Virus genome (UHGV): UHGV-0285531
DNA: 39,467 nucleotides
Source of the DNA: a virus
Direction: 5' to 3' (one strand)
The notes below the pieces were generated by a model. That model searched no databases, was not told where the DNA came from, and worked only from the letters and a program-made list of their open reading frames with translations. The translations under genes were made by a program, and so were the position numbers. Shown piece after piece: positions 1-39,467 of the stretch; the stretch's first letter is position 1; each line of letters opens with the position of its first letter.

Positions 1-321
1 ATTGAAGATGATAGTGGCACCCAGTCTGAAGACACTGGTCGTCTACAGCTTCGTCGGGCTTGGGTCAACTACAAGGACACTGGCGCTCTGAGACTCATTG
101 TCAGAAACGGTGAGCGAGAGTTCGTTAACACCTTTAATGGGTACACCCTTGGTCAGCAAACCATAGGGACTACTAACATTGGTGACGGGCAGTATCGCTT
201 CGCTATGAATGGTAACGCATTAACCACAAGTCTAACCTTAGAGTCCGACTATCCTACCCCAGTGTCAATCGTTGGGTGTGGCTGGGAGGCGTCATACGCT
301 AAGAAAGCTCGTTCCGTCTAA
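1..321 (+). CDS. 12: tail tubular protein B (T7 gp12-like), C-terminal fragment; N-terminal part is at the other end of the window
   Basis: Frame-1 ORF open from base 1 to TAA 319-321 (ends ...GCGWEASYAKKARSV); in-frame continuation of the ORF that runs off the window end at 39467; lies between gp11 and gp13 as in T7. Confidence 0.8.
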   Translation: MEDDSGTQSEDTGRLQLRRAWVNYKDTGALRLIVRNGEREFVNTFNGYTLGQQTIGTTNIGDGQYRFAMNGNALTTSLTLESDYPTPVSIVGCGWEASYAKKARSV

Positions 322-345
322 CTTATTGAAGGGCCTATAGATTTA

Positions 346-368
346 CCTTAACTATCACTATAGGGACT
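346..368 (+). promoter_or_regulatory. phage RNAP promoter (phi13-like), +1 G at 363
   Basis: ccttaactatcactatagggact; one of 11 near-identical 23-nt sites sharing ACTATCACTATAGG; precedes gp13. Confidence 0.75.
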
Positions 369-397
369 ATAGGCCCTTAAGGTTATAAGGAGACTTT

Positions 398-874
398 ATG
401 TATATTCGCAAGGCTACGGAACCAGATGTCCACTACTTTCTGTGGCATCTTTCAGCAGATGATGTTAATGAGTGCAAAGCAAACTATGGGTCAACCGTTG
501 GTCTCTCTGAAAGACTGCTTAAGCACCTATCTCCGTCATCTGTGGTTTTAACGAACGGTGTAGGCGAAGTGTTTGCCTATGGTGGAAACCAAGGGGATAA
601 CGTATGGTTCTTGACTTCTGGTCTTGTCTATAAGCTGAGACCTAAAGAGAAGCGAGAGTTCATAAAGCGTATCTCTGAGTACAGGGACTTAATGTTAGAC
701 CAATACGGGACCATCTGGAACTACGTGTGGTCAGGCAATAAGTCTCACATTAAATTCTTGAAGTTGCTTGGGGCTAAGTTTCATGATGATTGGACTGTAA
801 GTCCGGTAACTGGTGAGCGTTTTCAATTATTCACTATCTCTAAGGAGGACGTATGTGCGAGCCAATTAGCATAG
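398..874 (+). CDS. 13: internal virion / core assembly protein (T7 gp13-like)
   Basis: ATG 398 with AGGAG 6 nt upstream; 158 aa; position between gp12 and gp14; overlaps gp14 start. Confidence 0.65.
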   Translation: MYIRKATEPDVHYFLWHLSADDVNECKANYGSTVGLSERLLKHLSPSSVVLTNGVGEVFAYGGNQGDNVWFLTSGLVYKLRPKEKREFIKRISEYRDLMLDQYGTIWNYVWSGNKSHIKFLKLLGAKFHDDWTVSPVTGERFQLFTISKEDVCASQLA

Positions 875-1440
875 GCATGGGTGTACTGTCTGTAGCCGGG
901 GCCACTATGTCCGCATCCCAACAGGCAAAGGCCGAAGGTGCAGCAATTGACGCTCAGAACCGACAGGCTCAGGAAATGGTTAAGCAGATGAACTACTCTG
1001 ACGCCAACCTGAAGATGCAGGAGCGATACATGAAGGAGCAGCAGATGGCTGAACTGACAGAGACCACGCTCAACGGTATTCGCAATCAGGGTATGGTCCG
1101 AGCTGCGGTGGCAGAGTCCGGTCTGGAAGGTAACTCTATGGACAGGATTGAACGTCAGGTCGAAGGAGATACAGTCAAGGAGCGAGCAGGTATTACCGAA
1201 AGTTACAACCGCGACTATGCGGCTATCTTCGGGAACCGTATCGCCAACATTGAGAACACCAAGTCTGCTATCCGTGGTCAAGGTAAAATCATCAAGACCA
1301 GTCCACTGGCCCATGCACTTAATGTTGCTAACGCCGGGATGCAAGGTTACGCCGCTGGTAAGTCAATCTCTGGAGCGTCAAGCTCTGGTGATGCTGCACC
1401 AATTAGTGCTGCTAAAGGCACACCTACAGGTCATAGCTAA
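853..1440 (+). CDS. 14: internal virion (core) protein B (T7 gp14-like)
   Basis: ATG 853 after AAGGAGGA; 195 aa starting MC..., Gln/Ala-rich like T7 gp14 (196 aa). Confidence 0.8.
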   Translation: MCEPISIGMGVLSVAGATMSASQQAKAEGAAIDAQNRQAQEMVKQMNYSDANLKMQERYMKEQQMAELTETTLNGIRNQGMVRAAVAESGLEGNSMDRIERQVEGDTVKERAGITESYNRDYAAIFGNRIANIENTKSAIRGQGKIIKTSPLAHALNVANAGMQGYAAGKSISGASSSGDAAPISAAKGTPTGHS

Positions 1441-1451
1441 GAGGAGGACTA

Positions 1452-3734: not shown

Positions 3735-3738
3735 CATA

Positions 3739-6700
3739 ATGGCGACTCGTGGTATTCGCAATAACAATCCGGGTAACATCCGGATAAGTAAGGACCAATG
3801 GGAAGGAATGACTGGAGATGATGGTGCATTCGTCACCTTCGATAGCCCAGAGTCTGGCGTCCGAGCTTTAGGTAAAAACCTGCTGTCCTACGGTCGCCAA
3901 GGTTATGACTCCATCGAGAAGATTATCAACCGATGGGCGCCCCCTAACGAGAACGCCACTAAGGCTTATATTGACTCAGTGGTGGCTGCAACTGGTATTC
4001 CAGCTACCCAGAGTCTCGACCTATCGAACCCGGACACCCTGTCTTCTCTGGCTCAAGCTATCAGCTTCCATGAGACAGGCTCCCGGTACGACCCTGAAGT
4101 CTATCAGAAGGGAGTCGCACGAGCACTCAATGGCATTAGCCCAAAGACTCCACCAGTAAGCGCTAACGTATTTGACGCACTCACGGAAGGACTCAAGGCT
4201 AAACCTAAAGTAGCTCTGGGCGAGAACCTTCCGACCGCTGCTGGTCTAAACATTGAGGGTCAAGCACCTGAAGCTCCCAACGAATCGTTCGGTGAGATGT
4301 TCTATAAGTCTACTGGCGAGACCATGCAGGAACGAGAGGATCGCTCTACGTGGTTCGGTTTCGGCTCGGCTACAGAAGCTGAAGTGAAGAACTCTATGGT
4401 CGGCGTGGCTATCCGCGCTGGTCAGACCGAGGACTCACTTGATGTCATTGGCGATGTGTTCAACCCTACCCGCTGGAACAACCATAAGTGGTCTCGTGAG
4501 GAGCTGGACCAGATTCGTAACGCTGGAGTTCTCCCTCAGTATTACGGTGTCATTACTGGTGGCTCCCCTCAGAACCTGACCGAGCTTATTAACTTAGCGC
4601 TTGAGAACCAGAAGTTGGACCAAGAGAAGGCCAAGGCTGGGACTGGTGCTCAGTTAGCTGCTGGTGTGATTGGCGCTGGTGTGGACCCTCTGACCTACGT
4701 TCCTATCGCTGGACAGATTGGTAAGGGTGGCAAGCTGGTCAACAAGATGTTCACCGTGGCTGCTCAATCTGGAGCACTTGCTGGTGTATCAGAGATGGCC
4801 CGTACCTCAGTGGCTGGTGGTGATACTCATGTGGCTGAGGCTATCCTTGGTGGTGCTCTCTTCGGTGGCGGTATGACTGCTATCGCTGATGGCTTAGGTA
4901 GAGCCTTAGGCCGTAACACTAACGAGTTCGCTGGACCAGCCACACGTCTGGAAGCTCGTGAGACAGCCCGTAACGTTGATGGTCAGGACCTGTCTCGTCT
5001 ACCTATTCAAGAAGGTGAGGAGACCTTTAGACATCAAGGCGTTAAGTTCGCTGACGTTCCGAATGAGCCGGGTAGTGTACGACTGGAAGATGGTTCAATC
5101 CTGATTGGTGAAAACCCTCTGAACCCTAAGACACGTCAAGTCTTTGACGAAGTGATTGAGCCTGAACGGGCCGCTGCGGGTGTGAACCTTGGTGGTCTGA
5201 CTGAGATTGGCCTGAAGCTGCTTCGGTCTGAGAACCCTGAGATTCGTGGAGTAGCTTCTGACTTAGTGCGTTCACCAACTGGTATGCAGTCTGGGGCCTC
5301 AGGTAAAATCGGGACCACTGCGTCTGACGTATTCGAGAGACTTCGTGCTGTGGACCATCGGTTCTACAACGACATCGACGATGCGGTTACTGAGGCACTG
5401 AAGGACCCGTACTTCCAGACAGCATTCTGGCGAGACTCTGGAGCATTCCGTCAGGACATCTACCAGCGCGTGTCTATGGCTATCGAAGATGGCAGCGGAA
5501 ACCTGAAGGCTGAACTGACTCCGGGAGAACTGAAAGTCTATGACCTGCTGAAGAACCAGTTTGACGCCAAGCGTGAGATGATGGAGAACCCGGCGATGTT
5601 TGGTCGTCCAGACGCTCAGTCTATCTTTCCGGGTAGCCGCTTCAAGGGAACCTACGTCCCTCATGTGTATAGCAAACAGATGAAGGAGCTGTACACCAAG
5701 GAGCTTGGGAGTCCAGAGGCGTTGCAGGAGGCCATCAAGAAGTCATGGTTGACCAGCTATGCGTCTCGACCTGAAGTCAAGAAACGCGTGGACGAGGCAC
5801 TCTTAGAGTCTGACCCTACGTTGACTCCAGAGGGACTTGCTGCTGTGGTCGATAAGTACGCCAACGATAAGGCTTACGGTATCTCCCACACCGAGCAATT
5901 CGAACGTTCATCCGTAATGGAAGAGAACATCAACGGTCTGGTTGGTCTGGAGAACAACAGCTTCCTTGAGGCTCGTAACCTGTTCGATAGCGATATGTCA
6001 ATCGTCCTACCTAACGGTCAGACCTTCAGTGTCAACAACCTGCGTGAGTGGGACATGGACAAGATTGTCCCGGCCTACAACCGTCGAGTTAATGGCGATA
6101 TTGCTATCATGGCTGGTACAGGCAAAACCACGAAGGACATGAAGGACTTGGTTGAGACCATGATGAACAAGGCTGGGGATGACGGTAAGTTGAAAGGTGA
6201 AGTATCTACCTTACGTGACACCTTGAAGATTCTAACTGGTCGTGCTCGACGTGATGGTGCTGACGATGCAGCCTTCGCTACCGTGATGCGCACAATGACA
6301 GACCTATCGTTCTTCGCTAAGAATGCCTATATGGGTGTTCAGAACTTAACGGAGATTGGCGGTATGCTGGCCCGTGGTAACGTTCGTGCAATGCTGCATG
6401 GAGTCCCAATTTTCCGTGACCTAGCCTTCCGTAACAAGAAGGTTGGGGCCTCAGAGATTAAGGACCTGCACAATGTTATATTTGGTAAGGAACTTGATGA
6501 CTCAATCCGTCCGTCTAAACAGGATGTCATTGACCGTCTGCGATCTTACAGTGACCTCGGTCGTGGTACAGCTACAGCTCTGGGGACTGCCAAGTATTAC
6601 ACTGGCGAACTTGCAGCACGCTCTCCGTTCACTAAAGTCCTCAACGGTACGACCAACTACCTGTTAGATGCTGGACGTCAAGGCTTCCTGTCTGACATCG

Positions 6701-7644: not shown

Positions 7645-7690
7645 GGGAGGCACTATCATAGGTCTCCTTTAATTCATAACAGGAGGCATA

Positions 7691-10600
7691 ATGTCCACGA
7701 TTACACAATTCCCTTCAGGAAACACTCAGTACAGGATTGAGTTCGACTACCTCGCCAGAACGTTTATTGTTGTTACGCTGGTGAATAGCTCTAACCCTAC
7801 CCTGAACCGTGTACTGGAAGTTGGTCGAGATTACCGATTCCTTAATCCAACGATGATTGAGATGTTGGTTGACCAATCAGGTTTTGACATCGTTCGTATT
7901 CACCGTCAGACTGGAACTGACTTAGTGGTAGACTTCAGGAATGGCTCAGTGTTGACAGCTAATGACCTGACCAATTCAGAGCTTCAGGCTATCCATATTG
8001 CAGAAGAAGGTCGAGACCAAACGGTTGACTTAGCGAAGGAATATGCCGATGCTGCTAGTAGCTCTGCTGGCAACGCTAAGGATAGCGAGGACGAAGCACG
8101 ACGAATCGCTGAGAGTATCAGGGAAGCTGGTCTAATTGGTTATATTACCCGTCGCTCCTTCGAGAAAGGCTACAACGTTACAACATGGAGCGAGGTCCTG
8201 CTATGGGAAGAGGATGGTGATTATTACCGCTGGGATGGTACGCTTCCAAAGAACGTTCCTGCTGGTTCAACTCCTGAAACTTCCGGTGGGATTGGATTAG
8301 GTGCGTGGGTTAGTGTTGGTGATGCTGCTTTAAGAAGTCAGATTTCAAATCCTGAAGGGGCAATACTCTACCCTGAATTACATAGAGCACGCTGGCTTGA
8401 TGAAAAAGATGTTCGTGGTTGGGGTGCTAAAGGTGATGGTGTCACTGATGATACAGCAGCGTTAACGAGCGCATTAAACGACATACCGGTTGGACAAAAG
8501 ATTAATGGCAATGGGAAGACATATAAGGTCACATCCCTGCCTGACATTAGTCGCTTCATCAACACTCGTTTCGTTTATGAGCGCATTCCCGGACAACCTC
8601 TTTATTATGCCTCTGAGGAATTTGTTCAGGGTGAGTTGTTCAAAATAACGGACACCCCTTATTACAATGCGTGGCCTCAGGATAAAGCGTTCGTATATGA
8701 TAATGTGATATATGCACCTTACATGGGTAGTGATCGTCATGGTGTTAGTCGTCTGCATGTATCATGGGTTAAGTCTGGTGATGATGGTCAAACATGGTCT
8801 ACTCCAGAGTGGTTAACTGATCTGCATCCAGATTACCCTACAGTGAACTATCACTGTATGAGTATGGGTGTATGTCGCAACCGTCTGTTTGCCATGATTG
8901 AAACACGTACTTTAGCCAAGAACGCATTAACCAATTGTGCATTGTGGGATCGCCCCATGTCTCGTAGCCTGCATCTTACTGGTGGTATCACTAAAGCTGC
9001 AAATCAGCAATATGCAACAATACATGTACCAGACCACGGACTATTCGTGGGTGATTTTGTTAACTTCTCTAATTCTGCGGTAACAGGTGTCTCCGGTGAT
9101 ATGACTGTTGCAACCGTAATAGATAAGGACAACTTCACGGTTCTTACACCCAACCAGCAGACTTCAGATTTGAATAACGCTGGAAAGAATTGGCACATGG
9201 GTACTTCTTTCCATAAGTCTCCATGGCGTAAGACAGACCTTGGTCTAATCCCTCGCGTCACAGAGGTGCATAGCTTTGCTACTATTGATAACAATGGCTT
9301 TGTTATGGGTTATCATCAAGGCGATGTAGCTCCACGCGAAGTTGGACTTTTCTATTTCCCTGACGCTTTCAATAGCCCATCTAGTTATGTTCGTCGTCAG
9401 ATACCATCTGAGTATGAACCAGATGCGTCAGAGCCGTGCATCAAGTACTATGACGGTGCATTATACCTTATCACTCGTGGCACTCGTGGGGATAGGCTAG
9501 GTAGCTCTTTGCATCGTAGTAGAGACATAGGTCAGACTTGGGAGTCACTGAGATTTCCACATAATGTTCATCATACTACATTACCTTTTGCTAAAGTAGG
9601 GGATGACCTTATTATGTTTGGTTCAGAACGTGCAGAAAATGAATGGGAAGCAGGTGCACCAGATGATCGTTACAAGGCATCTTATCCTCGCACCTTCTAT
9701 GCGCGCTTGAATGTAAACAATTGGAATGCAGATGATATTGAATGGGTTAACATCACTGACCAGATTTATCAGGGCGGAATAGTTAACTCAGGTGTAGGTG
9801 TTGGTTCGGTAGTTGTGAAGGATAATTACATCTACTACATGTTTGGTGGAGAGGACCATTTTAACCCATGGACCTATGGAGATAACTCAGCGAAGGACCC
9901 ATTCAAAGCGGATGGTCATCCCTCAGATTTGTATTGCTACAAAATGAAGATTGGCCCAAGCAATCATGTTTCCCGTGATTTCAGGTATGGTGCTGTACCT
10001 AACAGAGCTGTTCCCGTGTTTTTTGATACGAATGGGATTCGCACTGTTCCTGCGCCAATGGAATTTACAGGGGATTTGGGTTTAGGTCATGTGACTATTA
10101 GAGCCAGCACCAGTAGTAACATTCGCTCTGAAGTTTTAATGGAAGGTGAATATGGGTTTATCGGGAAATCTATACCGACTGATAACCCGGCAGGGCAGCG
10201 CACCATATTTTGCGGAGGCGACAGTACCAGTTCTTCTTCTGGTGCACAGATTACGCTTTATGGTGCAAATAATACCGACTCAAGGCGAATAGTTTACAAT
10301 GGTGCTGAGCATCTGTTCCAGACTGCTGACGTTAAGCCTTATAACGATAACGTCACTGCGCTTGGTGGGCCTAGCAACCGTTTCACCACTGCATACCTCG
10401 GAAGTAACCCTATTGTTACTTCTAACGGGGAGAGGAAAACAGAGCCGGTAGTTTTTGATGATGCTTTCCTTGATGCCTGGGGTGACGTTCACTACATCAT
10501 GTACCAGTGGTTAGATGCTGTTCAACTGAAAGGCAATGATGCTCGTATTCACTTCGGGGTTATTGCTCAGCAAATTCGTGATGTATTCATTGCACATGGT

Positions 10601-10885
10601 CTGATGGATGAAAACAGTACGAATTGTCGTTATGCTGTTCTGTGCTATGACAAGTATCCACGGATGACCGATACGGTATTTTCGCACAATGAAATCGTTG
10701 AACACACTGACGAGGAGGGTAATGTCACTACTACGGAAGAACCTGTATACACCGAGGTGGTTATTCACGAAGAGGGTGAGGAGTGGGGTGTTCGGCCTGA
10801 CGGAATTTTCTTTGCTGAAGCCGCTTATCAGAGAAGAAAACTGGAAAGAATCGAAGCCAGACTTTCTGCTCTTGAACAGAAGTAA
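7691..10885 (+). CDS. 17: tail fibre / tailspike with endo-N-acetylneuraminidase (endosialidase, K1 capsule depolymerase) and C-terminal intramolecular chaperone domain
   Basis: 1064 aa; N-terminal ~150 aa is T7 gp17-like adaptor ([25 protein letters not shown]...); remainder matches, by recollection, the phage K1F endosialidase including the C-terminal auto-cleaved chaperone segment; ATG 7691 after AGGAGG. Confidence 0.88.
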   Translation: [1064 protein letters not shown]

Positions 10886-11016: not shown

Positions 11017-11211
11017 ATGATTGAGTTAGACTTCAAGAATGAGGTCCTTAAAGCCTCTCCTATCGTCGGGACCGCTGCGGCTGATGGTGCCAGTCGGTTC
11101 TTCTTTGGACTTACACTGAACGAATGGTTCTACGTTGCAGCTATCGCGTACACCGTTGTCCAGATTGGTGTGCTAGTCTACAAAACGATTAAAGGAGGTG
11201 GTAAAACATGA
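11017..11211 (+). CDS. 17.5: holin (T7 gp17.5-like)
   Basis: 64 aa with a hydrophobic segment (WFYVAAIAYTVVQIGVLVY) and basic C-terminus; strong resemblance to T7 gp17.5 (…PIVGT…FFGL.LNEWFYVAAIAYTVVQIG…); RBS GGAGG. Confidence 0.8.
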   Translation: MIELDFKNEVLKASPIVGTAAADGASRFFFGLTLNEWFYVAAIAYTVVQIGVLVYKTIKGGGKT

Positions 11212-11471
11212 CGCAGATGGACTTAGAGAAGTTCCTCTTGATGCTTGATACTGAACGTGCTCGACTCATGCTGCAAGACTTGCGGGATGACACTAAGCGT
11301 TCACCTCAGCTTTACAACGCCATTGAGAAGCTACTGGCTCGTCACAACTTTGTGTTAAGCAAGGTGTCTGTGGACGAGAAGACGCTGGCTGATATGGAGG
11401 CCCTGAACGCAGAGTACGATAAGGTGCTTTCAGCGACTGAGGATAATGACACAGGGTATGGTGTTCAATAA
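11208..11471 (+). CDS. 18: terminase small subunit / DNA maturation protein A (T7 gp18-like)
   Basis: 87 aa; ATG overlaps holin stop; position between holin and Rz-like gene as in T7. Confidence 0.6.
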   Translation: MTQMDLEKFLLMLDTERARLMLQDLRDDTKRSPQLYNAIEKLLARHNFVLSKVSVDEKTLADMEALNAEYDKVLSATEDNDTGYGVQ

Positions 11472-12022: not shown

Positions 12023-13782
12023 GTAAAGACTTAGTGGCGCGTCAGGCGCTAATGACTGCCCGTATGAAGGCAGACTTCGTGTTCTTCCTGTTCGTCCTGT
12101 GGAAAGCTCTGTCACTACCCGTCCCGACTCGCTGTCAGATTGACATGGCGAAGAAACTATCGGCTGGGGACAACAGGCGTTTCATCCTACAGGCGTTCCG
12201 TGGTATCGGGAAGTCATTCATTACGTGCGCATTCGTGGTATGGAAACTGTGGAACAACCCAGACTTGAAGTTCATGATTGTGTCGGCCTCAAAGGAACGA
12301 GCCGATGCGAACTCCATCTTCATCAAGCGAATCATCGACCTCATGCCTCAGCTTCAGGAACTTAAACCTAAGCAGGGACAGCGAGATGCGGTTATCAGCT
12401 TCGACGTTGGGCCAGCCAAGCCAGACCACTCACCTTCGGTTAAGTCCGTTGGTATCACTGGTCAGTTGACTGGTAGTCGTGCTGACATCCTGATTGCCGA
12501 TGACGTTGAGGTTCCTAACAACTCAGCGACTCAGGCTGCACGAGACCGACTATCAGAGCTTGTGAAAGAGTTCGACGCTATCCTGAAGCCGGGAGGTACA
12601 ATCATCTATCTGGGCACTCCTCAGAACGAGATGACCCTGTATCGTGAGTTGGAAGGTCGTGGGTATACCACTACTATCTGGCCAGCTCGTTATCCACGTG
12701 ATAAGAAGGACTGGCAGTCCTACGGCGACCGTCTGTCTCCTATGCTTCAGGCAGAGCTGGAAGAGGACCCTGAGTCCTTCTACTGGCGTCCTACCGATGA
12801 AGTACGATTCGATGATACGGACCTGAAGGAACGTGAGCTGTCCTATGGTAAAGCTGGCTTCGCTCTACAGTTCATGCTTAACCCTAACCTGAGTGATGCC
12901 GAGAAGTACCCTCTGAAGCTCCGTGACCTTATCGTAGCAGACTTGGACCCAGCGTCTAGCCCAATGGTCTACCAATGGCTTCCTAACCCTCAGAACAAGC
13001 GTGAGGACGTTCCTAACGTTGGACTCATGGGTGACTCATACCACACGTATCAGACTGTAGGTTCTGCCTTCAGTTCGTACACCCAGAAGATTCTAGTCAT
13101 TGACCCTAGCGGTCGTGGTAAGGATGAAACTGGTTATGTGGTACTGTACCAGCTAAACGGCTACATCTTCGCTATGGAAGTTGGCGGTATGCGAGGTGGC
13201 TATGAAGACTCTACGCTGGAAGCCTTGGCTAAGATTGGTCGTAAGTGGAAGGTCAACGAATACGTCATTGAGGGTAACTTCGGTGATGGTATGTACCTTG
13301 AGCTATTCAAGCCTGTAGCTTCCCGTATTCATCCTGCTGCTGTAACTGAAGTGAAGAGTAAGGGTCAGAAGGAACTCCGCATCTGTGACGTTCTGGAGCC
13401 TATCATGGGGTCTCACCGACTTATCGTCAACGCTGCTGCTATCGTCCAAGATTACCAGTCTGCCTCTGATAAGGATGGTGTTCGTAATCCTATCTACTCT
13501 CTCTTCTACCAGATGACACGTATCTCTCGTGAACGTGGAGCATTGGCACATGATGACCGACTTGATGCGCTGGCTATCGGTGTACAGTTCTTCGTTGAGT
13601 CTATGGCGAAGGATGCCAACAAAGGCGAACGTGAAGTCACTGAGGAGTGGCTGGAAGAACAGATGGAGAACCCACGGAAAGGCTTCGAGTCCATCCACAC
13701 TGAGTTCTGGGACAATGGGGTCCGGGTAACTCACAATACGGACGACGAGCTGGGACTAGGGTCCTACGTTACGTTCCACTAG
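12019..13782 (+). CDS. 19: terminase large subunit (T7 gp19-like)
   Basis: 587 aa; TTG start at 12019 with AGGAGGT 7 nt upstream (alternatives GTG 12034, ATG 12052); strong recollected identity to T7 gp19 ([89 protein letters not shown]). Confidence 0.9.
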
Positions 13783-13876: not shown

Positions 13877-13899
13877 ACTTAACTATCACTATAGGGAAG
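13877..13899 (+). promoter_or_regulatory. phage RNAP promoter (phiOR-like), +1 G at 13894
   Basis: ggacttaactatcactatagggaagac, downstream of terminase, upstream of gp19.5-like ORF and genome right end. Confidence 0.75.
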
Positions 13900-14237: not shown

Positions 14238-14397
14238 CGCAATCATGGTAACGATTCATGAGAGGAAGACCTAAGGTCAGTTCATAGCTGACGCTACTCT
14301 ACTGACCTTAGCTACTGTAGTCAAGGACTTTAGGTAACACCTTAAGAGAAGCTCACTTAGGGTCATCCTACTTATTGGTCTATCCTAGTGTCGCCTG

Positions 14398-14436
14398 ACC
14401 TACGGTCCTTAACCTACAGTGGCTGTGGCCTACAGT
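14398..14436. repeat. short direct repeats (CCTACGG / CCTACAGT x3) near genome right end
   Basis: acctacgg..acctacagt..gcctacagt; analogous to T7 CCTAAAG-type heptamer arrays flanking the terminal repeat. Confidence 0.5.
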
Positions 14437-14474: not shown

Positions 14475-14670
14475 TCTCACAGTTCAAGAACCTCAAGTCT
14501 CCCCCATAGGCCCTCTTTAAGTCCAGACCAAAGGCCCTACCCCAGTCTGTCATAAGGTTGGACCGATGGTCAAGACTTCAGGTCAACGATAGGTATAGGC
14601 TATGGCTTAGGGAAGGACGATAGGTAGGGGCTATAGGTCTGTCTCTGAGTCTCTATCTGTATAGTGTTAT
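14475..14670. repeat. genome terminus and direct terminal repeat (single collapsed copy); extent approximate
   Basis: tctcacagttcaagaacctcaagtctcccccatagg resembles the T7 left end as I recall it (TCTCACAGTGTACGG...CCCCCATAGG); noncoding; flanked on both sides by heptamer repeat arrays. Confidence 0.45.
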
Positions 14671-14684: not shown

Positions 14685-14757
14685 TCCTACACCTACAGTC
14701 TCACTAACCTACAGTCTCAACCATAAGACACCAACACCTACAGTCAGAGACCTACGG
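14685..14757. repeat. heptamer direct-repeat array (CCTACAC, CCTACAGTC x3, CCTACGG)
   Basis: tcctacacctacagtctcactaacctacagtctcaacc...acacctacagtcagagacctacgg; equivalent position to the T7 left-end CCTAAAG array. Confidence 0.6.
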
Positions 14758-14869
14758 TTAATAGACACAAAGGCTATAGACTTAAGGTCTAAGACATGTT
14801 AGTCAAAGACTATATCCTCTTACACCATGGGGCCGACGATAGCTTAATCAATATTATTTAAATAACCTA

Positions 14870-15009: not shown

Positions 15010-15039
15010 TTGACAAGATGTAACGATAAGATGTAAGAT
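15010..15039 (+). promoter_or_regulatory. host sigma70 early promoter (A2/A3-like)
   Basis: TTGACA (15010-15015), 18-bp spacer, TAAGAT (15034-15039), followed by GTACCACAT as in T7 A3 by recollection. Confidence 0.55.
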
Positions 15040-27576: not shown

Positions 27577-29748
27577 ATGTTTGACCTTAAGAGTATCTGG
27601 GGTTCTGACATCGAGACCAACGGTCTCCTTGATACAGTCTCCCAGTTCCACTGTGGGGTCCTGATTAACGCCGAGTCGAATGAGACCCTTAAGTACGGGG
27701 TAGCTCCGATGGTCGGTATCGTCGGTGGCTTCAAAGAGTATGTTCATAAAGTTGAAGAGATTGCCGCATCGCCTGATGGTATGCTGGTATTCCACAACGG
27801 TATCAACTATGACGTCCCGGCTATAGACAAGCTGAAGCGTTTGTACTTTGGGAAACGCTTTAACTTCCCGAAACATAAGATGATTGATACCTTGGTACTG
27901 GGACGCTTGCTGTATCCAAACATTAAGTTCTCAGACATGGGCGCAGTGAAAGCTGGTCGTCTGCCACCTAAGATGATGGGACGCCAGTCTCTTGAGGCTT
28001 GGGGCTATCGTCTCGGTGAGATGAAAGGTGAGTACAAACACGATTACGTTGCCAAGTGCAAGGCTGAAGGTATCGAATATAAGGCTGGGGACGAATGGTT
28101 GTTCCCGTCTCAGGAGATGCTGGACTATAACGTTCAAGACGTTGTGGTCACACTGGCGTTGTTCAAGAAGTTCCTGACTGACAAGTATTACTTCCAGTCT
28201 GAACAGTTCGCTTTCGACCAGATTTATGCGTTGCGTCTGGAACATGATGCTGCGTGGACCTGTGCGAAGATGGAACGTAACGGCTATCCGATGAACACCG
28301 AGATGGTCGAAGGCTTATATCGTGAACTCACCGTCAAACGTGCAGAGCTGCTGGACAAGCTGCGTTCGACTTTCGGTAGCTGGTACGCACCAAAGGGAGG
28401 CAAGGAGTTCTTCAGGCATCCACGGACAGGCAAGGACCTTCCGAAGTACCCACGAGTCGTGTATCCTAAGGTCGGGTCAGTATTCAAGAAGCCGAAGAAC
28501 AAAGCTCAACGCTTAGGTCTGGAGCCTTGCGAGTTTGACTCACGAGACACGATGGAGGGAGCACCGTTCACACCTATCACTTACGTTGAGTTTAATCCGG
28601 GAAGCGGAGACCACTTAGCGAAAGTCTTGATGGAGCGTGGTTGGGAGCCTGTGGACTTCACTGACACTGGGAAACCTGTAGTCGATGATGAGACGTTAGA
28701 GCACGTTAAGTTACCGGACGCAGAGGCTCAGGATTGCGTAGAGCTGGTCCGTGAGTATCTGGTAGTCCAGAAGCGCATAGGTCAGGCGGCTGAAGGTAAT
28801 AACGCATGGTTGAAACTTGTAGGTCCAGACGGACGTATGCACGGTTCAATCAACCCTTGTGGAGCAGTAACCGGACGTGCGACCCATAGTTCACCAAACA
28901 TGGCTCAGGTCCCTGCTAACGGTGCTCCGTATGGTGAGATTTGCCGTGGTGCTTTCGGTGCAGCTTGGAACAAGACGGATGGTAAGCCAGACCCTTGGAT
29001 TCAAGTGGGTGTGGATGCTTCAGGTCTTGAGCTTCGTTGTCTTGGGAACCGAGCGGCTCCGTTTGATGGTGGTGCCTATGCGAAGACTGTGGTCGAAGGT
29101 GACATCCACTGGGCCAATGCAGTAAACGCTGGGTTAGCACCTAACGTCCCACGCGATAAGTCGAGCCACGACCATGATGCTTTCCGTAACAACGCTAAGA
29201 CGTTCATCTATGCGTTCCTATATGGTGCAGGGGCCGCTAAGATTGGACTGATAGTAGGCGGTGGGAAGAAGGAAGGTTCAGCTCTCATGAAGAAATTCAT
29301 TGAGGGTACACCAGCCATCAAAGACCTCAGGGAAGCTGTGAGTAATACGTTAATCTCAGACTCTAAGTGGGTGGACGGAGAGAACATCGTTAAGTGGAAA
29401 CGCCGTTGGCTGCGTGGACTTGATGGTCGCCGTATCCACATCCGGTCGCCACACTCAGCACTGAACGCCTTACTTCAAGGCGATGGTGCGGTAGTCTGTA
29501 AGCACTGGATTGTCGAGACTGAACGTATGCTCGAAGAGGCAGGGTATGTTCACGGCTGGGAAGGTGACTTTGCGTACATGGCTTGGGTGCATGATGAATT
29601 GCAGATTGCGTGTCGTACTCAGGAGATTGCCGAAGAAGTCGTCAAGATTGCGCAACTTGCTATGCGTAAGGTGGGTGAGTTCTATAACTTTAAATGTGTC
29701 CTTGATACCGAAGGTAAGATTGGACCAACGTGGAAGGAGTGTCACTAA
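27577..29748 (+). CDS. 5: DNA polymerase (T7 gp5-like, family A with 3'-5' exonuclease)
   Basis: Track ORF 27541 (GTG, inside hairpin element) to 29748; preferred ATG 27577 (ACGGAGGA upstream; MFDLKSIWGSDIETNGL); recollected identity to T7 gp5 throughout (VFHNG..YDVPA, YNVQDVVVT, GAVTGRATH, GIDASGLELRCL, DNAKTFIYGFLYGAG, AWVHDE). Confidence 0.95.
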   Translation: MFDLKSIWGSDIETNGLLDTVSQFHCGVLINAESNETLKYGVAPMVGIVGGFKEYVHKVEEIAASPDGMLVFHNGINYDVPAIDKLKRLYFGKRFNFPKHKMIDTLVLGRLLYPNIKFSDMGAVKAGRLPPKMMGRQSLEAWGYRLGEMKGEYKHDYVAKCKAEGIEYKAGDEWLFPSQEMLDYNVQDVVVTLALFKKFLTDKYYFQSEQFAFDQIYALRLEHDAAWTCAKMERNGYPMNTEMVEGLYRELTVKRAELLDKLRSTFGSWYAPKGGKEFFRHPRTGKDLPKYPRVVYPKVGSVFKKPKNKAQRLGLEPCEFDSRDTMEGAPFTPITYVEFNPGSGDHLAKVLMERGWEPVDFTDTGKPVVDDETLEHVKLPDAEAQDCVELVREYLVVQKRIGQAAEGNNAWLKLVGPDGRMHGSINPCGAVTGRATHSSPNMAQVPANGAPYGEICRGAFGAAWNKTDGKPDPWIQVGVDASGLELRCLGNRAAPFDGGAYAKTVVEGDIHWANAVNAGLAPNVPRDKSSHDHDAFRNNAKTFIYAFLYGAGAAKIGLIVGGGKKEGSALMKKFIEGTPAIKDLREAVSNTLISDSKWVDGENIVKWKRRWLRGLDGRRIHIRSPHSALNALLQGDGAVVCKHWIVETERMLEEAGYVHGWEGDFAYMAWVHDELQIACRTQEIAEEVVKIAQLAMRKVGEFYNFKCVLDTEGKIGPTWKECH

Positions 29749-31802: not shown

Positions 31803-31816
31803 CTGTAGGAGGGACT

Positions 31817-32041: not shown

Positions 32042-32045
32042 GACA

Positions 32046-32450: not shown

Positions 32451-32691
32451 ATCAATCAGTAAGGCTTTCAAGAAAGTGGTGAAAAGTACGTTAGGGACAG
32501 TAGGTCTTGGCTCTGACGATGCACCTAAGGTTGTTGAGGCCCAGACCCCAGCAGCACCAGTGGAAGTACCGAACGATAAAGTGGAAGATGTGGATACCGA
32601 AGCAACCGCATCTGACGAGAAGAAAGTGAAGCGTTCAGGTAAGCGTAGCCTTCAGGTCTCTCGCACCTCTGGTGGCGGTATTTCTATTTAA
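32443..32691 (+). CDS. 7.3: gp7.3-like tail/adsorption protein
   Basis: GTG start after AAGGAG; begins MGKS..KAFKKVVKS and ends SGGGISI as recalled for T7 gp7.3 (…SSGGGINI). Confidence 0.65.
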   Translation: MGKSISKAFKKVVKSTLGTVGLGSDDAPKVVEAQTPAAPVEVPNDKVEDVDTEATASDEKKVKRSGKRSLQVSRTSGGGISI

Positions 32692-32702
32692 GGAGGTGAC
32701 TA

Positions 32703-34271
32703 ATGGCTGAACGTGAAGGGTTCGCTGCTGAAGGAGCCAAAGCGGTCTATGACCGCCTGAAGAACGGTAGACAGCCATATGAGACACGCGCTCAGAATTG
32801 TGCTGCTGTCACTATCCCGTCACTGTTTCCTAAGGAGTCCGACAACTCGTCTACTGAGTACACCACTCCGTGGCAAGCTGTAGGTGCTCGATGTTTGAAC
32901 AACTTGGCTGCAAAGCTGATGTTGGCATTATTCCCCCAGTCACCGTGGATGCGACTTACAGTCTCCGAATATGAGGCTAAGACCTTGAGTCAGGACTCAG
33001 AGGCTGCTGCTCGTGTTGACGAGGGGCTTGCTATGGTCGAGCGTGTGTTGATGGCCTACATGGAGACAAACAGTTTCCGTGTGCCATTGTTCGAAGCTCT
33101 GAAGCAGCTTATAGTCTCCGGTAACTGTCTGCTCTACATTCCAGAGCCTGAACAGGGAACCTACAGTCCCATGCGAATGTACCGCTTAGTGTCTTACGTT
33201 GTTCAACGTGATGCGTTCGGTAACATCTTGCAGATTGTGACTCTCGACAAGGTAGCGTTTAGTGCTCTACCGGAAGACGTTAAGTCACAACTAAACGCAG
33301 ACGACTATGAGCCTGACGCAGAGCTGGAAGTATATACGCACATCTACCGTCAAGACGACGAGTATCTACGTTATGAGGAAGTGGAAGGCATTGAGGTAGC
33401 AGGGACCGAGGGTTCCTACCCACTGACTGCATGTCCATACATCCCGGTACGAATGGTTCGACTGGATGGTGAAGACTATGGTCGTTCTTACTGCGAGGAG
33501 TATCTGGGAGACCTGAACTCGCTGGAGACGATTACAGAAGCTATCACCAAAATGGCTAAGGTAGCCTCCAAGGTGGTGGGCCTCGTTAACCCGAACGGTA
33601 TCACGCAACCTCGTCGTCTGAACAAGGCGGCTACAGGTGAGTTCGTTGCCGGTCGCGTTGAGGACATCAACTTCCTGCAACTGACTAAGGGTCAGGACTT
33701 TACGATTGCCAAGTCGGTGGCTGATGCTATCGAGCAACGTTTAGGCTGGGCCTTCCTTCTTAATAGTGCTGTTCAGCGTAATGCCGAGCGAGTCACTGCT
33801 GAAGAGATTCGTTATGTTGCTGGCGAACTGGAGGCGACCTTAGGTGGCGTGTACTCAGTACAATCCCAAGAGCTTCAGTTACCTATCGTACGTGTGCTGA
33901 TGAACCAACTTCAGTCTGCTGGCATGATTCCTGACCTTCCGAAAGAAGCGGTAGAGCCTACTGTCTCCACCGGTCTGGAAGCGTTAGGTCGTGGTCAGGA
34001 CTTGGAGAAGCTAACTCAGGCGATTAACATGATGACTGGTCTTCAGCCTCTATCTCAGGACCCGGACATAAACTTGCCGACCCTTAAGCTACGACTCCTG
34101 AACGCTCTGGGTATCGACACCGCTGGCCTACTCCTGACGCAAGACGAGAAGACTCAGCGCATGGCTGAGCAGTCGTCTCAACAGGCAGTTGTCCAAGGTG
34201 CTAGTGCTGCTGGTGCTAACATGGGTGCTGCTGTAGGTCAGGGAGCTGGTGAGGACATGGCTCAAGCCTAA
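32703..34271 (+). CDS. 8: portal (head-to-tail connector) protein (T7 gp8-like)
   Basis: 522 aa; ATG after AAGGAGGTG; size and position as T7 gp8. Confidence 0.9.
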   Translation: MAEREGFAAEGAKAVYDRLKNGRQPYETRAQNCAAVTIPSLFPKESDNSSTEYTTPWQAVGARCLNNLAAKLMLALFPQSPWMRLTVSEYEAKTLSQDSEAAARVDEGLAMVERVLMAYMETNSFRVPLFEALKQLIVSGNCLLYIPEPEQGTYSPMRMYRLVSYVVQRDAFGNILQIVTLDKVAFSALPEDVKSQLNADDYEPDAELEVYTHIYRQDDEYLRYEEVEGIEVAGTEGSYPLTACPYIPVRMVRLDGEDYGRSYCEEYLGDLNSLETITEAITKMAKVASKVVGLVNPNGITQPRRLNKAATGEFVAGRVEDINFLQLTKGQDFTIAKSVADAIEQRLGWAFLLNSAVQRNAERVTAEEIRYVAGELEATLGGVYSVQSQELQLPIVRVLMNQLQSAGMIPDLPKEAVEPTVSTGLEALGRGQDLEKLTQAINMMTGLQPLSQDPDINLPTLKLRLLNALGIDTAGLLLTQDEKTQRMAEQSSQQAVVQGASAAGANMGAAVGQGAGEDMAQA

Positions 34272-34289
34272 ACTATCACTATAGGAACA
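34267..34289 (+). promoter_or_regulatory. phage RNAP promoter (phi9-like), +1 G at 34284
   Basis: cctaaactatcactataggaaca overlapping gp8 stop; 5' leader forms long-range stem GGAACAACACAAC / GUUGUUGUGUUUUCC. Confidence 0.75.
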
Positions 34290-34380
34290 ACACAACTTGA
34301 GTGAGTGAACGCATAGCCAGCCGTAACTGGATGGCAGGTTGTTGTGTTTTCCTATTAACGACTTAAAGGAGAATGACTTA

Positions 34381-35265: not shown

Positions 35266-35266
35266 G

Positions 35267-35289
35267 ACTAAACTATCACTATAGGGAGA
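35267..35289 (+). promoter_or_regulatory. phage RNAP promoter (phi10-like), full consensus incl. GGGAGA, +1 G at 35284
   Basis: ctaaactatcactatagggagac; transcript starts with GGGAGACC...GGUUUCCC 5' hairpin (35284-35315). Confidence 0.85.
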
Positions 35290-35391
35290 CCAAGAGATAG
35301 ACTAAAGGTTTCCCTATTACTTCAGTCCATACGGATTGGGCATACAGTAAGTAATAAACTTTATCTTTCAATTGAATAGGAGAATTATCAT

Positions 35392-36441
35392 ATGGCAAAC
35401 GTTCCGGGTCAGAAAATTGGTACAGACCAAGGTAAAGGTAAATCCAGTTCCGACGCTCTGGCGTTGTTCCTGAAGGTATTTGCTGGTGAAGTCCTGACCG
35501 CATTCACTCGCCGCTCTGTAACTGCTGACAAGCATATTGTCCGTACCATTCAGAACGGTAAGTCTGCTCAGTTCCCGGTCATGGGTCGCACATCTGGTGT
35601 GTATCTGGCTCCTGGTGAGCGACTGTCCGATAAGCGTAAAGGTATCAAACATACCGAGAAAGTGATTACCATTGATGGTCTGCTGACTGCCGATGTGATG
35701 ATTTTCGACATTGAAGACGCGATGAACCACTACGACGTGGCTGGCGAGTATTCCAACCAGTTGGGCGAAGCTCTGGCTATCGCTGCTGATGGTGCGGTGC
35801 TGGCTGAAATGGCGATCCTGTGTAACCTCCCGGCTGCATCCAACGAGAACATCGCTGGTCTGGGTACTGCGTCCGTCCTACAAGTTGGTAAGAAAGCTGA
35901 CCTCGACACCCCGGCTAAACTGGGCGAAGCAATCATCGGTCAACTGACCATTGCTCGTGCGAAGCTGACCTCCAACTACGTTCCTGCTGGCGACCGTTAC
36001 TTCTACACCACGCCAGACAACTACTCTGCAATCCTCGCGGCTCTGATGCCGAACGCTGCTAACTATGCTGCGCTGATTGACCCAGAGACTGGTAACATCC
36101 GTAACGTGATGGGCTTCGTTGTTGTTGAAGTTCCGCATCTGGTACAGGGTGGTGCTGGTGAGACCCGTGGTGCTGATGGTGTCACTATCGCTTCCGGCCA
36201 GAAACACGCATTCCCGGCAACTGCTACTGGCGACGTTAAAGTTGCTATGGACAACGTTGTGGGTCTGTTCTCTCACCGTTCTGCTGTGGGTACTGTGAAG
36301 CTGCGTGACTTGGCGCTGGAACGTGACCGTGACGTCGATGCTCAGGGCGACCTGATTGTTGGTAAATACGCTATGGGTCACGGCGGTCTGCGTCCAGAAG
36401 CGGCAGGCGCACTGGTTTTCACAGCGGCGTCAGCGGGTTAA
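35392..36441 (+). CDS. 10A: major capsid protein (T7 gp10A-like)
   Basis: 349 aa; RBS AGGAGA; recollected identity to T7 gp10A. Confidence 0.95.
   Translation: MANVPGQKIGTDQGKGKSSSDALALFLKVFAGEVLTAFTRRSVTADKHIVRTIQNGKSAQFPVMGRTSGVYLAPGERLSDKRKGIKHTEKVITIDGLLTADVMIFDIEDAMNHYDVAGEYSNQLGEALAIAADGAVLAEMAILCNLPAASNENIAGLGTASVLQVGKKADLDTPAKLGEAIIGQLTIARAKLTSNYVPAGDRYFYTTPDNYSAILAALMPNAANYAALIDPETGNIRNVMGFVVVEVPHLVQGGAGETRGADGVTIASGQKHAFPATATGDVKVAMDNVVGLFSHRSAVGTVKLRDLALERDRDVDAQGDLIVGKYAMGHGGLRPEAAGALVFTAASAG
36414..36420 (+). other. candidate -1 programmed ribosomal frameshift site (G GUU UUC) near end of gp10A
   Basis: Heptamer GGTTTTC 7 codons before gp10A stop; the -1 frame is open from here to 36704. 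Confidence 0.55.
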
Positions 36442-36704
36442 CGACCTTTAAGGCCCTCTCTACAGAGGGTCCTACCTTAGAGACATACAGTTCTACGGTG
36501 GGAACCAGCTTGAAGGTTGACTTCCCTGAGCTTTCAGACGTGACCGATTGGTCGCTGCTTGAGGTGACTACGCCTGATGGTGTTAGCTACTCCCGTAGAA
36601 CCAACAGTCTCTACTTCAAGGCCACCTCTGGCGTGGAAGGTCTGGTGATTGTTGGGTATGACGGTTCGCCTGTGCGTTCCTTCAACGTATCTTTCACAAA
36701 CTAA
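36420..36704 (+). CDS. 10B: C-terminal extension of minor capsid protein (gp10B-like) reached by -1 frameshift
   Basis: -1 frame has no stop between 36414 and TAA 36702-36704; track shows only the 3' part as ORF 36498-36704; T7 makes gp10B the same way. Confidence 0.55.
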   Translation, partial: HSGVSGLTTFKALSTEGPTLETYSSTVGTSLKVDFPELSDVTDWSLLEVTTPDGVSYSRRTNSLYFKATSGVEGLVIVGYDGSPVRSFNVSFTN

Positions 36705-36710
36705 TTGAAA

Positions 36711-36748
36711 CCCCTTGGGTACCTTCGGGTGCTTGAGGGGTTTTTTTT
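36711..36748 (+). terminator. Tphi-like transcription terminator
   Basis: CCCCUUGGGUACC-UUCG-GGUGCUUGAGGGG followed by U8; closely resembles the T7 Tphi sequence as I recall it. Confidence 0.85.
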
Positions 36749-36763
36749 GCTTAAGGAGGGACT

Positions 36764-36853
36764 ATGTTCCTTATTTACACAGGGTTAGCACTATTCGTCT
36801 TATTCTGGGCGTACCTGCTGTCCAGCTCGCCGTCTAGCCCCTATGACCATTAA
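36764..36853 (+). CDS. hypothetical 29-aa hydrophobic micro-protein between Tphi and gp11
   Basis: ATG 36764 after TTAAGGAGGG; MFLIYTGLALFVLFWAYLLSSSPSSPYDH; not in track (short). Confidence 0.3.
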   Translation: MFLIYTGLALFVLFWAYLLSSSPSSPYDH

Positions 36854-36864
36854 GGAGTAAACCT

Positions 36865-37431
36865 ATGGCTCAGTACATTCCACTGAATGCTAACGATGAC
36901 TTAGACGCCATCAACGATATGTTAGCAGCTATCGGTGAACCAGCAGTCCTACAGCTTGACGAGGGGAACGCTGACGTATCGAACGCTCAACGTATCCTGC
37001 ATCGTGTCAATCGTCAGGTCCAAGCTAAAGGATGGAACTTTAACATTAATGAAGCTGCTGTCCTGACACCTGATGTCCAAGACAACAGGATTCGATTCTT
37101 GCCGTCATACCTTCGTGTAATGACCGCTGGGGCCACCAGCTACTACAGCAACATGGGTGGATACCTGTACGACCTGTCCACTCAGTCCACCACTTTCACC
37201 GACCCTATCACGGTAGAGCTTGTGGAGATGAAGCCATTCTCCGAGATGCCTGTGGTCTTCAGGGACTACATCGTCACTAAAGCTAGCCGTGAGTTCAACG
37301 CTAAGTTCTTCGGTAGCCCAGAGTCTGAACTGTACCTTCGTGAGCAGGAAGCAGAACTCTATCAGCAGGTCATGGAATACGAGATGGATACTGGTCGCTA
37401 CAACATGATGTCCGACATTGGGAGGGACTAA
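36865..37431 (+). CDS. 11: tail tubular protein A (T7 gp11-like)
   Basis: 188 aa; RBS TAAGGAG; position between capsid and gp12. Confidence 0.85.
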   Translation: MAQYIPLNANDDLDAINDMLAAIGEPAVLQLDEGNADVSNAQRILHRVNRQVQAKGWNFNINEAAVLTPDVQDNRIRFLPSYLRVMTAGATSYYSNMGGYLYDLSTQSTTFTDPITVELVEMKPFSEMPVVFRDYIVTKASREFNAKFFGSPESELYLREQEAELYQQVMEYEMDTGRYNMMSDIGRD

Positions 37432-39467
37432 TGCCGCTTATTACTCAATCAATCAAGAACCTTAAAGGTGGCATTAGCCAACAGCCTGATATACTTAGGT
37501 TCTCAGACCAAGGCGAGGAACAGGTTAACTGCTGGTCATCAGAGAGTGATGGCCTCCAGAAGCGCCCACCTACAGTCTTCAAGCGACGTCTTAACATCGA
37601 CGTTGGAAGCAACCCTAAGTTCCACCTGATTAACCGTGATGAGCAGGAGCAGTATTACATCGTGTTCAATGGGTCAAACATTCAGGTAGTTGACTTGAGT
37701 GGTAATCAATACTCAGTGTCAGGTTCGGTAGACTACGTTAAGTCCTCCAACCCACGAGATGACATCCGTGTCGTTACCGTGGCAGACTATACGTTCGTCG
37801 TTAACCGTAAGGTTGTCGTCAAAGGTGGAAGCGAGAAGTCACACTCTGGTTATAACCGCAAAGCACGAGCTTTAATTAACCTACGTGGTGGACAGTATGG
37901 TCGAACCCTTAAGGTGGGAATCAACGGTGGCGTTAAGGTCTCGCATAAGCTACCAGCAGGTAATGATGCCGAGAATGACCCACCTAAGGTGGACGCTCAA
38001 GCCATTGGTGCAGCTCTGAGAGACCTTCTTGTTGCTTCCTATCCTACCTTCACGTTTGACCTTGGGTCTGGCTTCCTGCTAATCACAGCTCCTTCAGGGA
38101 CAGACATTAACTCAGTGGAGACGGAGGATGGCTACGCTAACCAGCTAATAAGCCCAGTCCTAGACACTGTGCAGACAATCTCTAAACTACCTCTTGCCGC
38201 TCCTAATGGGTATATCATTAAGATTCAAGGTGAGACAAACAGTAGCGCCGATGAATACTACGTGATGTATGACTCCAACACTAAGACGTGGAAGGAGACA
38301 GTGGAGCCGGGAGTTGTCACTGGGTTCGATAACACCACAATGCCACACGCTCTGGTACGACAATCTGATGGCTCCTTTGAGTTCAAGACTCTGGATTGGT
38401 CCAAGCGTGGTGCTGGTAACGATGACACAAACCCTATGCCTAGCTTCGTGGATGCTGCGATTAATGATGTGTTCTTCTACAGGAACAGGCTAGGGTTCTT
38501 GTCGGGTGAGAACCTAATCATGAGCCGTTCAGCCAGCTACTTTGCGTTCTTCCCTAAGAGTGTGGCGACACTGAGTGATGATGACCCTATTGATGTAGCT
38601 GTAAGTCACCCTCGAATCTCAATCCTTAAGTATGCCGTTCCGTTTAGCGAGCAGCTACTACTTTGGTCTGATGAGGTTCAGTTCGTGATGACAAGCTCAG
38701 GGGTCCTTACCTCGAAGTCTATCCAGCTTGATGTAGGCTCAGAGTTTGCCTTAGGAGATAATGCCAGACCGTTCGCTGTAGGACGCTCAGTCTTCTTCTC
38801 AGCGCCTCGTGGGTCATTCACCAGCATTAAGCGATACTTCGCTGTAGCAGATGTGTCTGACGTGAAGGATGCCGATGATACCACTGGTCACGTACTATCC
38901 TATATCCCTAACGGGGTGTTTGACATTCAGGGGACAGGGACTGAGAACTACATCTGCGTCAACTCTACAGGTGCATACAACCGAATCTACCTCTACAAGT
39001 TCTTGTTTAAAGACGGCGTACAGCTTCAAGCCTCTTGGTCTCACTGGGAGTTCCCTAAAGCTGATAAGATTCTGGCGTCTGCGTCGATTGGCTCTACCAT
39101 GTTCATTGTTCGTCAGCACCAAGGCGGCGTGGACCTTGAGCACCTTAAGTTCATCAAGGAGGCAACTGACTTTCCGTCAGAGCCATATAGACTCCACGTT
39201 GACTCCAAGGTGTCTATGGTCATCCCAATTGGCTCGTTTAATGCTGACACATATAAGACTACGGTTGACATTGGTGCTGCTTATGGTGGTAATGCTCCGT
39301 CTCCCGGTCGGTACTATCTGATTGACAGTCAGGGTGCTTATTTGGACCTTGGGGACTTGACCAGTATCTCTACTGTGATTACCCTCAACGGCGATTGGTC
39401 AGGACGTACAGTTTTCATCGGGCGGCCCTATCTGATGTCCTACAAGTTCTCACGGTTCCTGATTAAG
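37431..39467 (+). CDS. 12: tail tubular protein B (T7 gp12-like), N-terminal 679 codons; ORF runs off the window end
   Basis: ATG 37431 overlapping gp11 stop (TAATG); frame open to last base (679 complete codons); continues in frame at base 1. Confidence 0.9.
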   Translation, partial: MPLITQSIKNLKGGISQQPDILRFSDQGEEQVNCWSSESDGLQKRPPTVFKRRLNIDVGSNPKFHLINRDEQEQYYIVFNGSNIQVVDLSGNQYSVSGSVDYVKSSNPRDDIRVVTVADYTFVVNRKVVVKGGSEKSHSGYNRKARALINLRGGQYGRTLKVGINGGVKVSHKLPAGNDAENDPPKVDAQAIGAALRDLLVASYPTFTFDLGSGFLLITAPSGTDINSVETEDGYANQLISPVLDTVQTISKLPLAAPNGYIIKIQGETNSSADEYYVMYDSNTKTWKETVEPGVVTGFDNTTMPHALVRQSDGSFEFKTLDWSKRGAGNDDTNPMPSFVDAAINDVFFYRNRLGFLSGENLIMSRSASYFAFFPKSVATLSDDDPIDVAVSHPRISILKYAVPFSEQLLLWSDEVQFVMTSSGVLTSKSIQLDVGSEFALGDNARPFAVGRSVFFSAPRGSFTSIKRYFAVADVSDVKDADDTTGHVLSYIPNGVFDIQGTGTENYICVNSTGAYNRIYLYKFLFKDGVQLQASWSHWEFPKADKILASASIGSTMFIVRQHQGGVDLEHLKFIKEATDFPSEPYRLHVDSKVSMVIPIGSFNADTYKTTVDIGAAYGGNAPSPGRYYLIDSQGAYLDLGDLTSISTVITLNGDWSGRTVFIGRPYLMSYKFSRFLIK

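Follow-up and report, generated by a model that had tools for sequence, protein, structure and literature searches.

The 39,467-nucleotide (nt) virus genome UHGV-0285531, which was analysed over its full length and is called the window below, is almost certainly one genome unit of a phage closely similar to K1F, represented in circular form and opened at an arbitrary position in gene 12, the gene for tail tubular protein B (nozzle). The main lines of evidence are the way in which the two ends of the window join within gene 12, a contig in which the same sequence has been opened at another place, and a single internal copy of what in K1F is a terminal repeat.

The Two Ends of the Window Join in Gene 12

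At the 3' end of the window the reading frame starting at ATG 37431 is open through the last base (37431..39467, + strand), a total of 2037 nt or exactly 679 codons. The 5' end holds the C-terminal part of the gene (1..321, + strand), where bases 1-318 make up 106 codons in frame 1 and are followed by a TAA stop at 319-321. The initial annotation of this DNA had pointed out that gp12 runs off the 3' end after 679 codons and that about 106 codons remain at the start, and the two parts (679 + 106) are indeed in the same frame. When the end is joined to the start and translated, as that annotation proposed, the product is a gp12 of 785 amino acids (aa) with a single terminal stop. It has the same length as K1F gp12, is 98.2% identical to it, and aligns with it across the join without any gap. 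The residues flanking the join, SRFLIK before it and IEDDSG after it, are the same in both phages.

A check of the junction that is independent of K1F is provided by the Pfam family PF25675 (Phage_nozzle, 794 positions), since the 3' fragment matches profile positions 1-685 and the 5' fragment positions 689-793. At the nucleotide level the alignment places window base 39467 at K1F base 24975 and window base 1 at K1F base 24976, which are contiguous in K1F. BUCT788 is likewise contiguous over the join, at its bases 15072/15073, and an exact 36-mer spanning the join is present in an IMG/VR relative. Continuity across the junction in related genomes, by which the initial annotation proposed to judge its closed map, is found in both K1F and BUCT788. 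A self-comparison of the window found no overlap between its two ends. The in-frame gp12 match at these ends is far beyond what chance would give.

The Same Sequence Opened in Gene 16

The strongest support for a circular assembly comes from Logan contig SRR6504847_7255 (39,497 bp), which was found by an exact-sequence look-up of gp17 and gp15 and encodes exactly these two proteins of the window. It contains an intact gp12 of 785 aa that spans the window join, and it is contiguous and 100% identical to the window over 1500 nt on each side of the join (3 kb). Both ends of this contig lie inside gene 16, and they share the 30-mer ATATTGCTATCATGGCTGGTACAGGCAAAA. This 30-mer is found in one copy in the window, at 6098..6127 (+ strand), where it marks the opening point of the contig. 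The 30-nt overlap between the contig ends equals k-1 for k=31, and 39,497 - 30 is 39,467, the length of the window. Together, the overlap and the match in length show that a k=31 assembly (de Bruijn) graph contained this sequence as a closed loop. This loop has been opened at two different arbitrary places, in gene 12 in the window and in gene 16 in the Logan contig. The view taken in the initial annotation, that the window is a circularised assembly rotated relative to its physical ends, is therefore supported by a contig that closes to 39,467 and opens elsewhere. The terminal repeat homologue described in the next section is present once in the Logan contig, at an internal position.

Exactly the same gp15 is also encoded by shorter contigs in two sister runs, Logan SRR6504857 and SRR6504882, which means that the phage turns up in more than one sample of that study.

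The Terminal Repeat Homologue and the Predicted Physical Ends

The termini of K1F were taken from its record, which has an exact 178-bp direct repeat at both ends, from a second, independent record (AM084414), and from annotated relatives. Both copies of the K1F repeat align to window 14475-14653, K1F base 1 corresponding to window 14475 and the last K1F base to window 14653. The segment in the window is 179 bp, has one extra C compared with K1F, and displays 95.5% identity to the K1F terminal repeat. No second copy of it is found in the window, 14475-14653 being the only match. The DNA on either side of both repeat boundaries is identical to K1F in the alignment, and window 14441-14690 is laid out like a K1F concatemer junction as reconstructed, namely right unique sequence, one repeat, and left unique sequence. 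The window thus carries a single copy of what would be the direct terminal repeat of the linear virion DNA (14475..14653, + strand); on this prediction the left end begins with TCTCACAGTTC and the right end closes with GAGTCTC. When it comes to the earlier proposal that the termini lie around 14475, with a direct terminal repeat collapsed to one copy in mid-window, both the collapse and the left end stand, the latter being exact in that it coincides with K1F base 1. The repeat itself, at 14475-14653, is slightly shorter than the segment 14475-14700 that had been suggested.

At least ten related phages have database records whose first base corresponds to 14475; among them are two K1F records, Kaz2018, Vec13, EcoDS1, Penshu1, Peacock, 216Ecol046PP, HC12, HC13, and YZ1. 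Several of these are annotated for the repeat, Vec13 with a "long terminal repeat", EcoDS1 with a "terminal repeat" and a "concatemeric junction" at 177-184, and Penshu1 and Peacock with a "direct terminal repeat predicted by PhageTerm". The repeats of the relatives are 177-181 bp long.

The repeat is flanked by CCTACAG/CCTACGG heptamers, of which the window has 44 copies, 8 of them within 14270-14757. A motif scan places short repeats of this kind just upstream of the terminal repeat (14396..14436, + strand), where the unique sequence has its right end, and just downstream of it (14686..14760, + strand), where the unique sequence has its left end. By their position we take these arrays to recall those of T7, 14396..14436 resembling SRR and 14686..14760 resembling SRL.

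Judged by homology to K1F, EcoDS1, Vec13, Penshu1, Peacock, and T7, the physical ends of this phage would lie at the boundaries of the repeat. The virion DNA would then be linear and about 39,646 bp long, running from 14475 through 39467/1 to 14653 and carrying 14475-14653 at both ends.

Origin of the Circle

Since the two repeat copies of such a linear genome would be identical and longer than the k-mer used by the assembler, the assembly graph would close on itself. One copy of the repeat would be retained, and the loop would be opened at a random place. Replicative concatemers of the T7 type would have the same arrangement as the window, with one repeat copy between genome units; the gp18/gp19 terminase would cut these concatemers, and the repeat would be duplicated during packaging (established T7 knowledge; PMC10438801). 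Short-read assemblies of T7-like phages have been found to delete the terminal repeats and to open the contigs in mid-genome (PMC10438801). The opening in gene 12 is a routine outcome of assembly and a known artefact, and biologically it is ordinary.

Three points weigh against this account. The repeat boundaries, 14475 and 14653, rest on homology and are accurate to about +/-1-3 nt. The identity between the Logan contig and the window was sampled: of the 39.5 kb, about 3.3 kb was compared as DNA, and to this are added two complete proteins and the arithmetic of the lengths. Finally, the sample looks metagenomic, the contig being number 7255 in its run, and the reads across the junction could come from real concatemers.

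The last point leads to the alternative that survives best, in which the circle stems from sequenced intracellular replicative concatemers, with one true repeat copy between units, and not from an assembler collapsing the ends of virion DNA. The source does look complex, both from the contig number and from the occurrence of the same gp15 in two sister runs; concatemers of the T7 type hold a single repeat copy per junction (PMC10438801), and window 14441-14690 matches the reconstructed K1F concatemer junction base for base in its layout. The sequence alone cannot tell this origin from a collapse, however, as a k=31 graph closes on the 179-bp repeat in either case. We regard concatemers as an unlikely source of the circle. 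They would change its cause and not the structure of the genome, which is the same in both cases, and the proposal is hence a variant of the assembly explanation and no true alternative to it.

A truly circularly permuted and terminally redundant genome, packaged by a headful mechanism and thus lacking fixed ends, is very improbable. The closure of the sequence into a circle is all that speaks for it, while the large terminase belongs to a T7-type family (PF22530), and the genome contains, together with its flanking arrays, a conserved counterpart of the fixed terminal repeat of K1F, EcoDS1, and T7. In addition, the direct terminal repeats of two close relatives, Penshu1 and Peacock, were predicted by PhageTerm to be fixed. 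A terminase of the Pac (headful) type and the lack of a fixed repeat, which would characterize such a genome, are not what is found here, and headful permutation was rejected.

That the ends of the window are real physical or contig ends, so that gene 12 is truncated or the genome incomplete at the join, is extremely improbable: nothing points to it beyond an open reading frame (ORF) running off the end, and it is refuted by the gap-free, in-frame alignment to K1F gp12, by the complementary PF25675 positions of the two fragments, and by the Logan contig, which is contiguous across a join where no K1F gene is missing.

For annotators, the assembly explanation means that the sequence should be rotated to start at 14475, that a second copy of 14475-14653 should be appended, and that gene 12 should be treated as intact. 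The permutation itself represents no new biology.

Gene Order and Completeness

The window aligns colinearly to K1F (NC_007456) in two blocks, window 1-14252 to K1F 24976-39229 and window 14475-39467 to K1F 1-24975. The gene order is that of T7 and K1F in rotated form, with all genes on the + strand, which confirms what the initial annotation had read from the sequence. With the window rotated so that 14475 comes first, 39 of the 42 K1F proteins tested have + strand homologues in colinear order. These include the gene 0.3 product, the RNA polymerase (RNAP), the ligase, the single-stranded DNA-binding protein, the primase-helicase, the exonuclease, the portal, scaffold, and capsid proteins, the tail and core proteins, the tailspike, the holin, and both terminase subunits, and the set extends to 19.5; the polymerase gene was confirmed separately as uninterrupted. 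For three K1F proteins the window has no colinear homologue; one is encoded by the HNH ORF in gene 5, and the other two by small ORFs. The claim that the genome is complete is supported by these numbers and by the finding that no K1F gene is missing at the join. A Pfam search supports the key genes independently of K1F.

Gene 1 (16746..19427, + strand) encodes a single-subunit RNAP of 893 aa that is 98.2% identical to K1F gp1 and matches PF00940 and PF14700. Gene 5 (27577..29748, + strand) encodes an uninterrupted DNA polymerase of 723 aa (PF00476), the start codon of which was checked; the polymerase gene of SR04 has the same length, 2172 nt. The portal protein is encoded by gene 8 (32703..34271, + strand) and the major capsid protein by gene 10 (35392..36441, + strand), both identified by K1F homology and Pfam. 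The small terminase subunit is encoded by gene 18 (11208..11471, + strand; K1F homology, PF11123), and the large subunit by gene 19 (12052..13782, + strand), which is 98.8% identical to K1F and matches the T7-type family PF22530 (Terminase-T7_RNaseH-like). Scans of the window for tRNAs and with Rfam gave no matches, as expected for this group.

An ORF of 52 aa with a hydrophobic stretch (14079-14237) is located between gene 19 and the terminal repeat. It is called as a gene in the Logan contig and is unannotated in K1F, and by its position it may be the counterpart of T7 gene 19.5.

The Tailspike Endosialidase

Gene 17 (7691..10885, + strand) encodes a tailspike endosialidase of the K1F endoNF type, identified by K1F homology, by structures in the PDB, and by Pfam. 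The initial annotation had matched the tail fibre sequence to the K1F endosialidase, and this is correct: the protein has 1064 aa, as has K1F gp17, and is 97.6% identical to it, with 26 substitutions. It matches the endoNF crystal structures 1v0e, 3gvl, 3gvj, and 3gvk at E=0, of which 1v0e and 3gvl cover residues 245-910, while residues 790-1064 match the chaperone-domain structure 3gw6. Precomputed Pfam assignments for the exact protein are PF03906, PF18668, PF12218, PF12217, PF12195, PF12219, and PF13884. The architecture is complete, and comprises a T7-tail-binding N-terminus, a β-propeller, a β-barrel, a stalk, and a C-terminal Peptidase_S74 chaperone.

The catalytic residues named for endoNF are H350, R549, E581, R596, and R647 (PMC12632334). 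None of the 26 substitutions falls on any of these positions, and E581, R596, and R647 were in addition checked directly. One substitution, N565S, is at a position that has been reported as tolerant (PMC12632334). S911 and its surrounding context are the same as in K1F. Ser911 is presumably the site of self-cleavage of the C-terminal chaperone, and the same cleavage is predicted for the phage in the window.

As the protein is an endosialidase of the K1F type with all known catalytic residues intact, the phage is predicted to infect K1-encapsulated E. coli. There is interest in such phages for therapy against these bacteria, and gp17 adds one more natural variant, with its 26 substitutions, to the endosialidases of this type.

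Predicted Promoters and Terminators

Nine promoters of the phage type, matching a TTAACTATCACTATAGGGA-like consensus, were predicted from the sequence on the + strand, while none was expected from shuffled sequences. One is located upstream of gene 13 (348..366, + strand). Another is found downstream of gene 19 (13879..13897, + strand), in the position of T7 phiOR, and matches TTAACTATCACTATAGGGA exactly. The remaining predicted promoters on the + strand start at 7624, 16657, 19735, 25336, 31448, 34269, and 35269. When it comes to the host enzyme, a candidate sigma-70 early promoter, TTGACA-18-TAAGAT, is located between the repeat and gene 0.3 (15010..15039, + strand). It is a match to the consensus only, with 10 of 12 bases, and EcoDS1 is annotated with a host RNAP promoter in the equivalent region of its left end.

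A strong terminator-like hairpin with a stem of 17 pairs and a T run follows the capsid gene (36707..36744, + strand), in the position of T7 T-phi. In the scans of the window for sigma-70 promoters and terminators the counts were at background, and only the promoter at 15010 and the hairpin at 36707 stand out. The region after the capsid gene, 36421-36855, is unlike that of K1F. It contains an ORF of 68 aa (36498-36704, phrog_7473), which is followed by the hairpin, and in SR04 an ORF that is likewise 207 nt long has been annotated at the corresponding place.

Taxonomic Position

The window was compared by megablast with 50,697 phage records (INPHARED, August 2025). The nucleotide search proposed in the initial annotation thereby matched hundreds of genomes of Kayfunavirus, the K1F-like genus of the Autographiviridae, with identities of up to 93-97% for the best of them. 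K1F (NC_007456/DQ111067) covers 93.4% of the window at 95.2% identity, which comes to about 89% overall. The closest whole genome found, that of Escherichia phage vB_EcoP_LNA3 (MZ311862), covers 95.6% of the window at about 95.7% identity and reaches about 91.5% overall.

The International Committee on Taxonomy of Viruses places phages with at least 70% nucleotide similarity over the genome in the same genus. The overall similarities to K1F and LNA3, about 89 and 91.5%, are above this value. The window also displays traits of Kayfunavirus, with a single-subunit RNAP in the early region, a colinear T7 order on one strand, and repeated predicted phage promoters. On the sequence, the phage belongs to Kayfunavirus (Autographiviridae, Studiervirinae) and is K1F-like. 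For species, the line was set at 95% genome-wide similarity. When coverage was multiplied by identity, the highest value reached by any record was about 0.907 in bases 1-25000 and about 0.955 in bases 25001-39467, and therefore no record in the collection can exceed about 92.5% overall similarity. Since all records are below the species line, the window probably represents a new species of Kayfunavirus, a well-known genus.

It seems somewhat more likely than not that this is a metagenome-assembled and undeposited Kayfunavirus species that combines a near-unchanged K1F endosialidase with reshuffled accessory genes, and in which gene 5 has no HNH gene and one follows the ligase gene.

Comparison with Known Systems

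The deletion of terminal repeats described in PMC10438801 concerns Klebsiella przondoviruses, and it differs from the present case in that the ends were confirmed with reads, while the direct evidence for the window is the k-1 overlap of the contig ends only.

LNA3 has the K1F-type tail-fibre region and, like the window, it is a rotated record, in which the repeat homologue occurs once, in mid-record at 16676-16852. MZ311862 was deposited as circular and is flagged UNVERIFIED. Many database relatives have been deposited in the same rotated state, LNA3 being one example. LNA3 differs from the window in that the overall similarity is below 95%, and its listed host is E. coli K-12 MG1655. This host is non-encapsulated, yet the tail-fibre region of LNA3 is about 96% identical to the K1F-type endosialidase gene of the window.

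K1F and the window share gene content and order, and gp12 (98.2%), gp17 (97.6%), and RNAP (98.2%) are all highly similar. The K1F record is linear and has both copies of the repeat, while the window is rotated and has one. The two also differ when it comes to HNH endonucleases. A 598-bp segment of K1F gene 5 that carries an HNH ORF (14937-15534) is not found in the window, where bases 29592/29593 correspond to K1F 14936/15535. The K1F DNA polymerase is annotated as a join of two pieces with an inner HNH ORF, while the polymerase in the window is uninterrupted. The window, on the other hand, has an insertion of about 400 bp with an HNH ORF between the ligase gene and gene 1.6 (21258-21719; PF13392, phrog_99), where K1F has none. 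The encoded protein is 35% identical to that of the HNH ORF inside K1F gene 5. Its start is uncertain, and may be the GTG at 21258 or that at 21294, overlapping the end of the ligase gene. An HNH gene after the ligase gene, with none in gene 5, would fit a turnover of homing endonucleases among K1-specific phages.

There are other differences from K1F as well. The gene 0.3 product is 169 aa in K1F and 111 aa in the window (15556-15891), and only the first 109 residues of the K1F protein align; the shorter, Ocr-like product is close in size to T7 Ocr, which has about 117 aa. Genes 1.3, 1.7, and 5.5 have diverged, as has the DNA that follows gene 10. At the amino acid level the ligase (20258-21328) is 79.7% identical to that of K1F, gp1.7 (22083-22523) about 51% over part of the protein, and the gp5.5-like protein (29748-30032) 34%, while the structural genes are 95-100% identical. 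This contrast suggests mosaic exchange in the early and middle regions.

T7 (NC_001604) is a more distant relative that displays the same overall design. Its left end begins TCTCACAGT, as predicted for the window, and its repeat ends beside the conserved TCTCTG...ATCTGT motif. Both phages have arrays of 7-mers flanking the repeat, the same gene order, a single-subunit RNAP with promoters of its own, and a terminase of the T7 type. T7 differs in that it belongs to the genus Teseptimavirus, has a repeat of 160 bp compared with about 179 bp, uses another promoter consensus, and carries a fibre where the phage in the window has an endosialidase tailspike.

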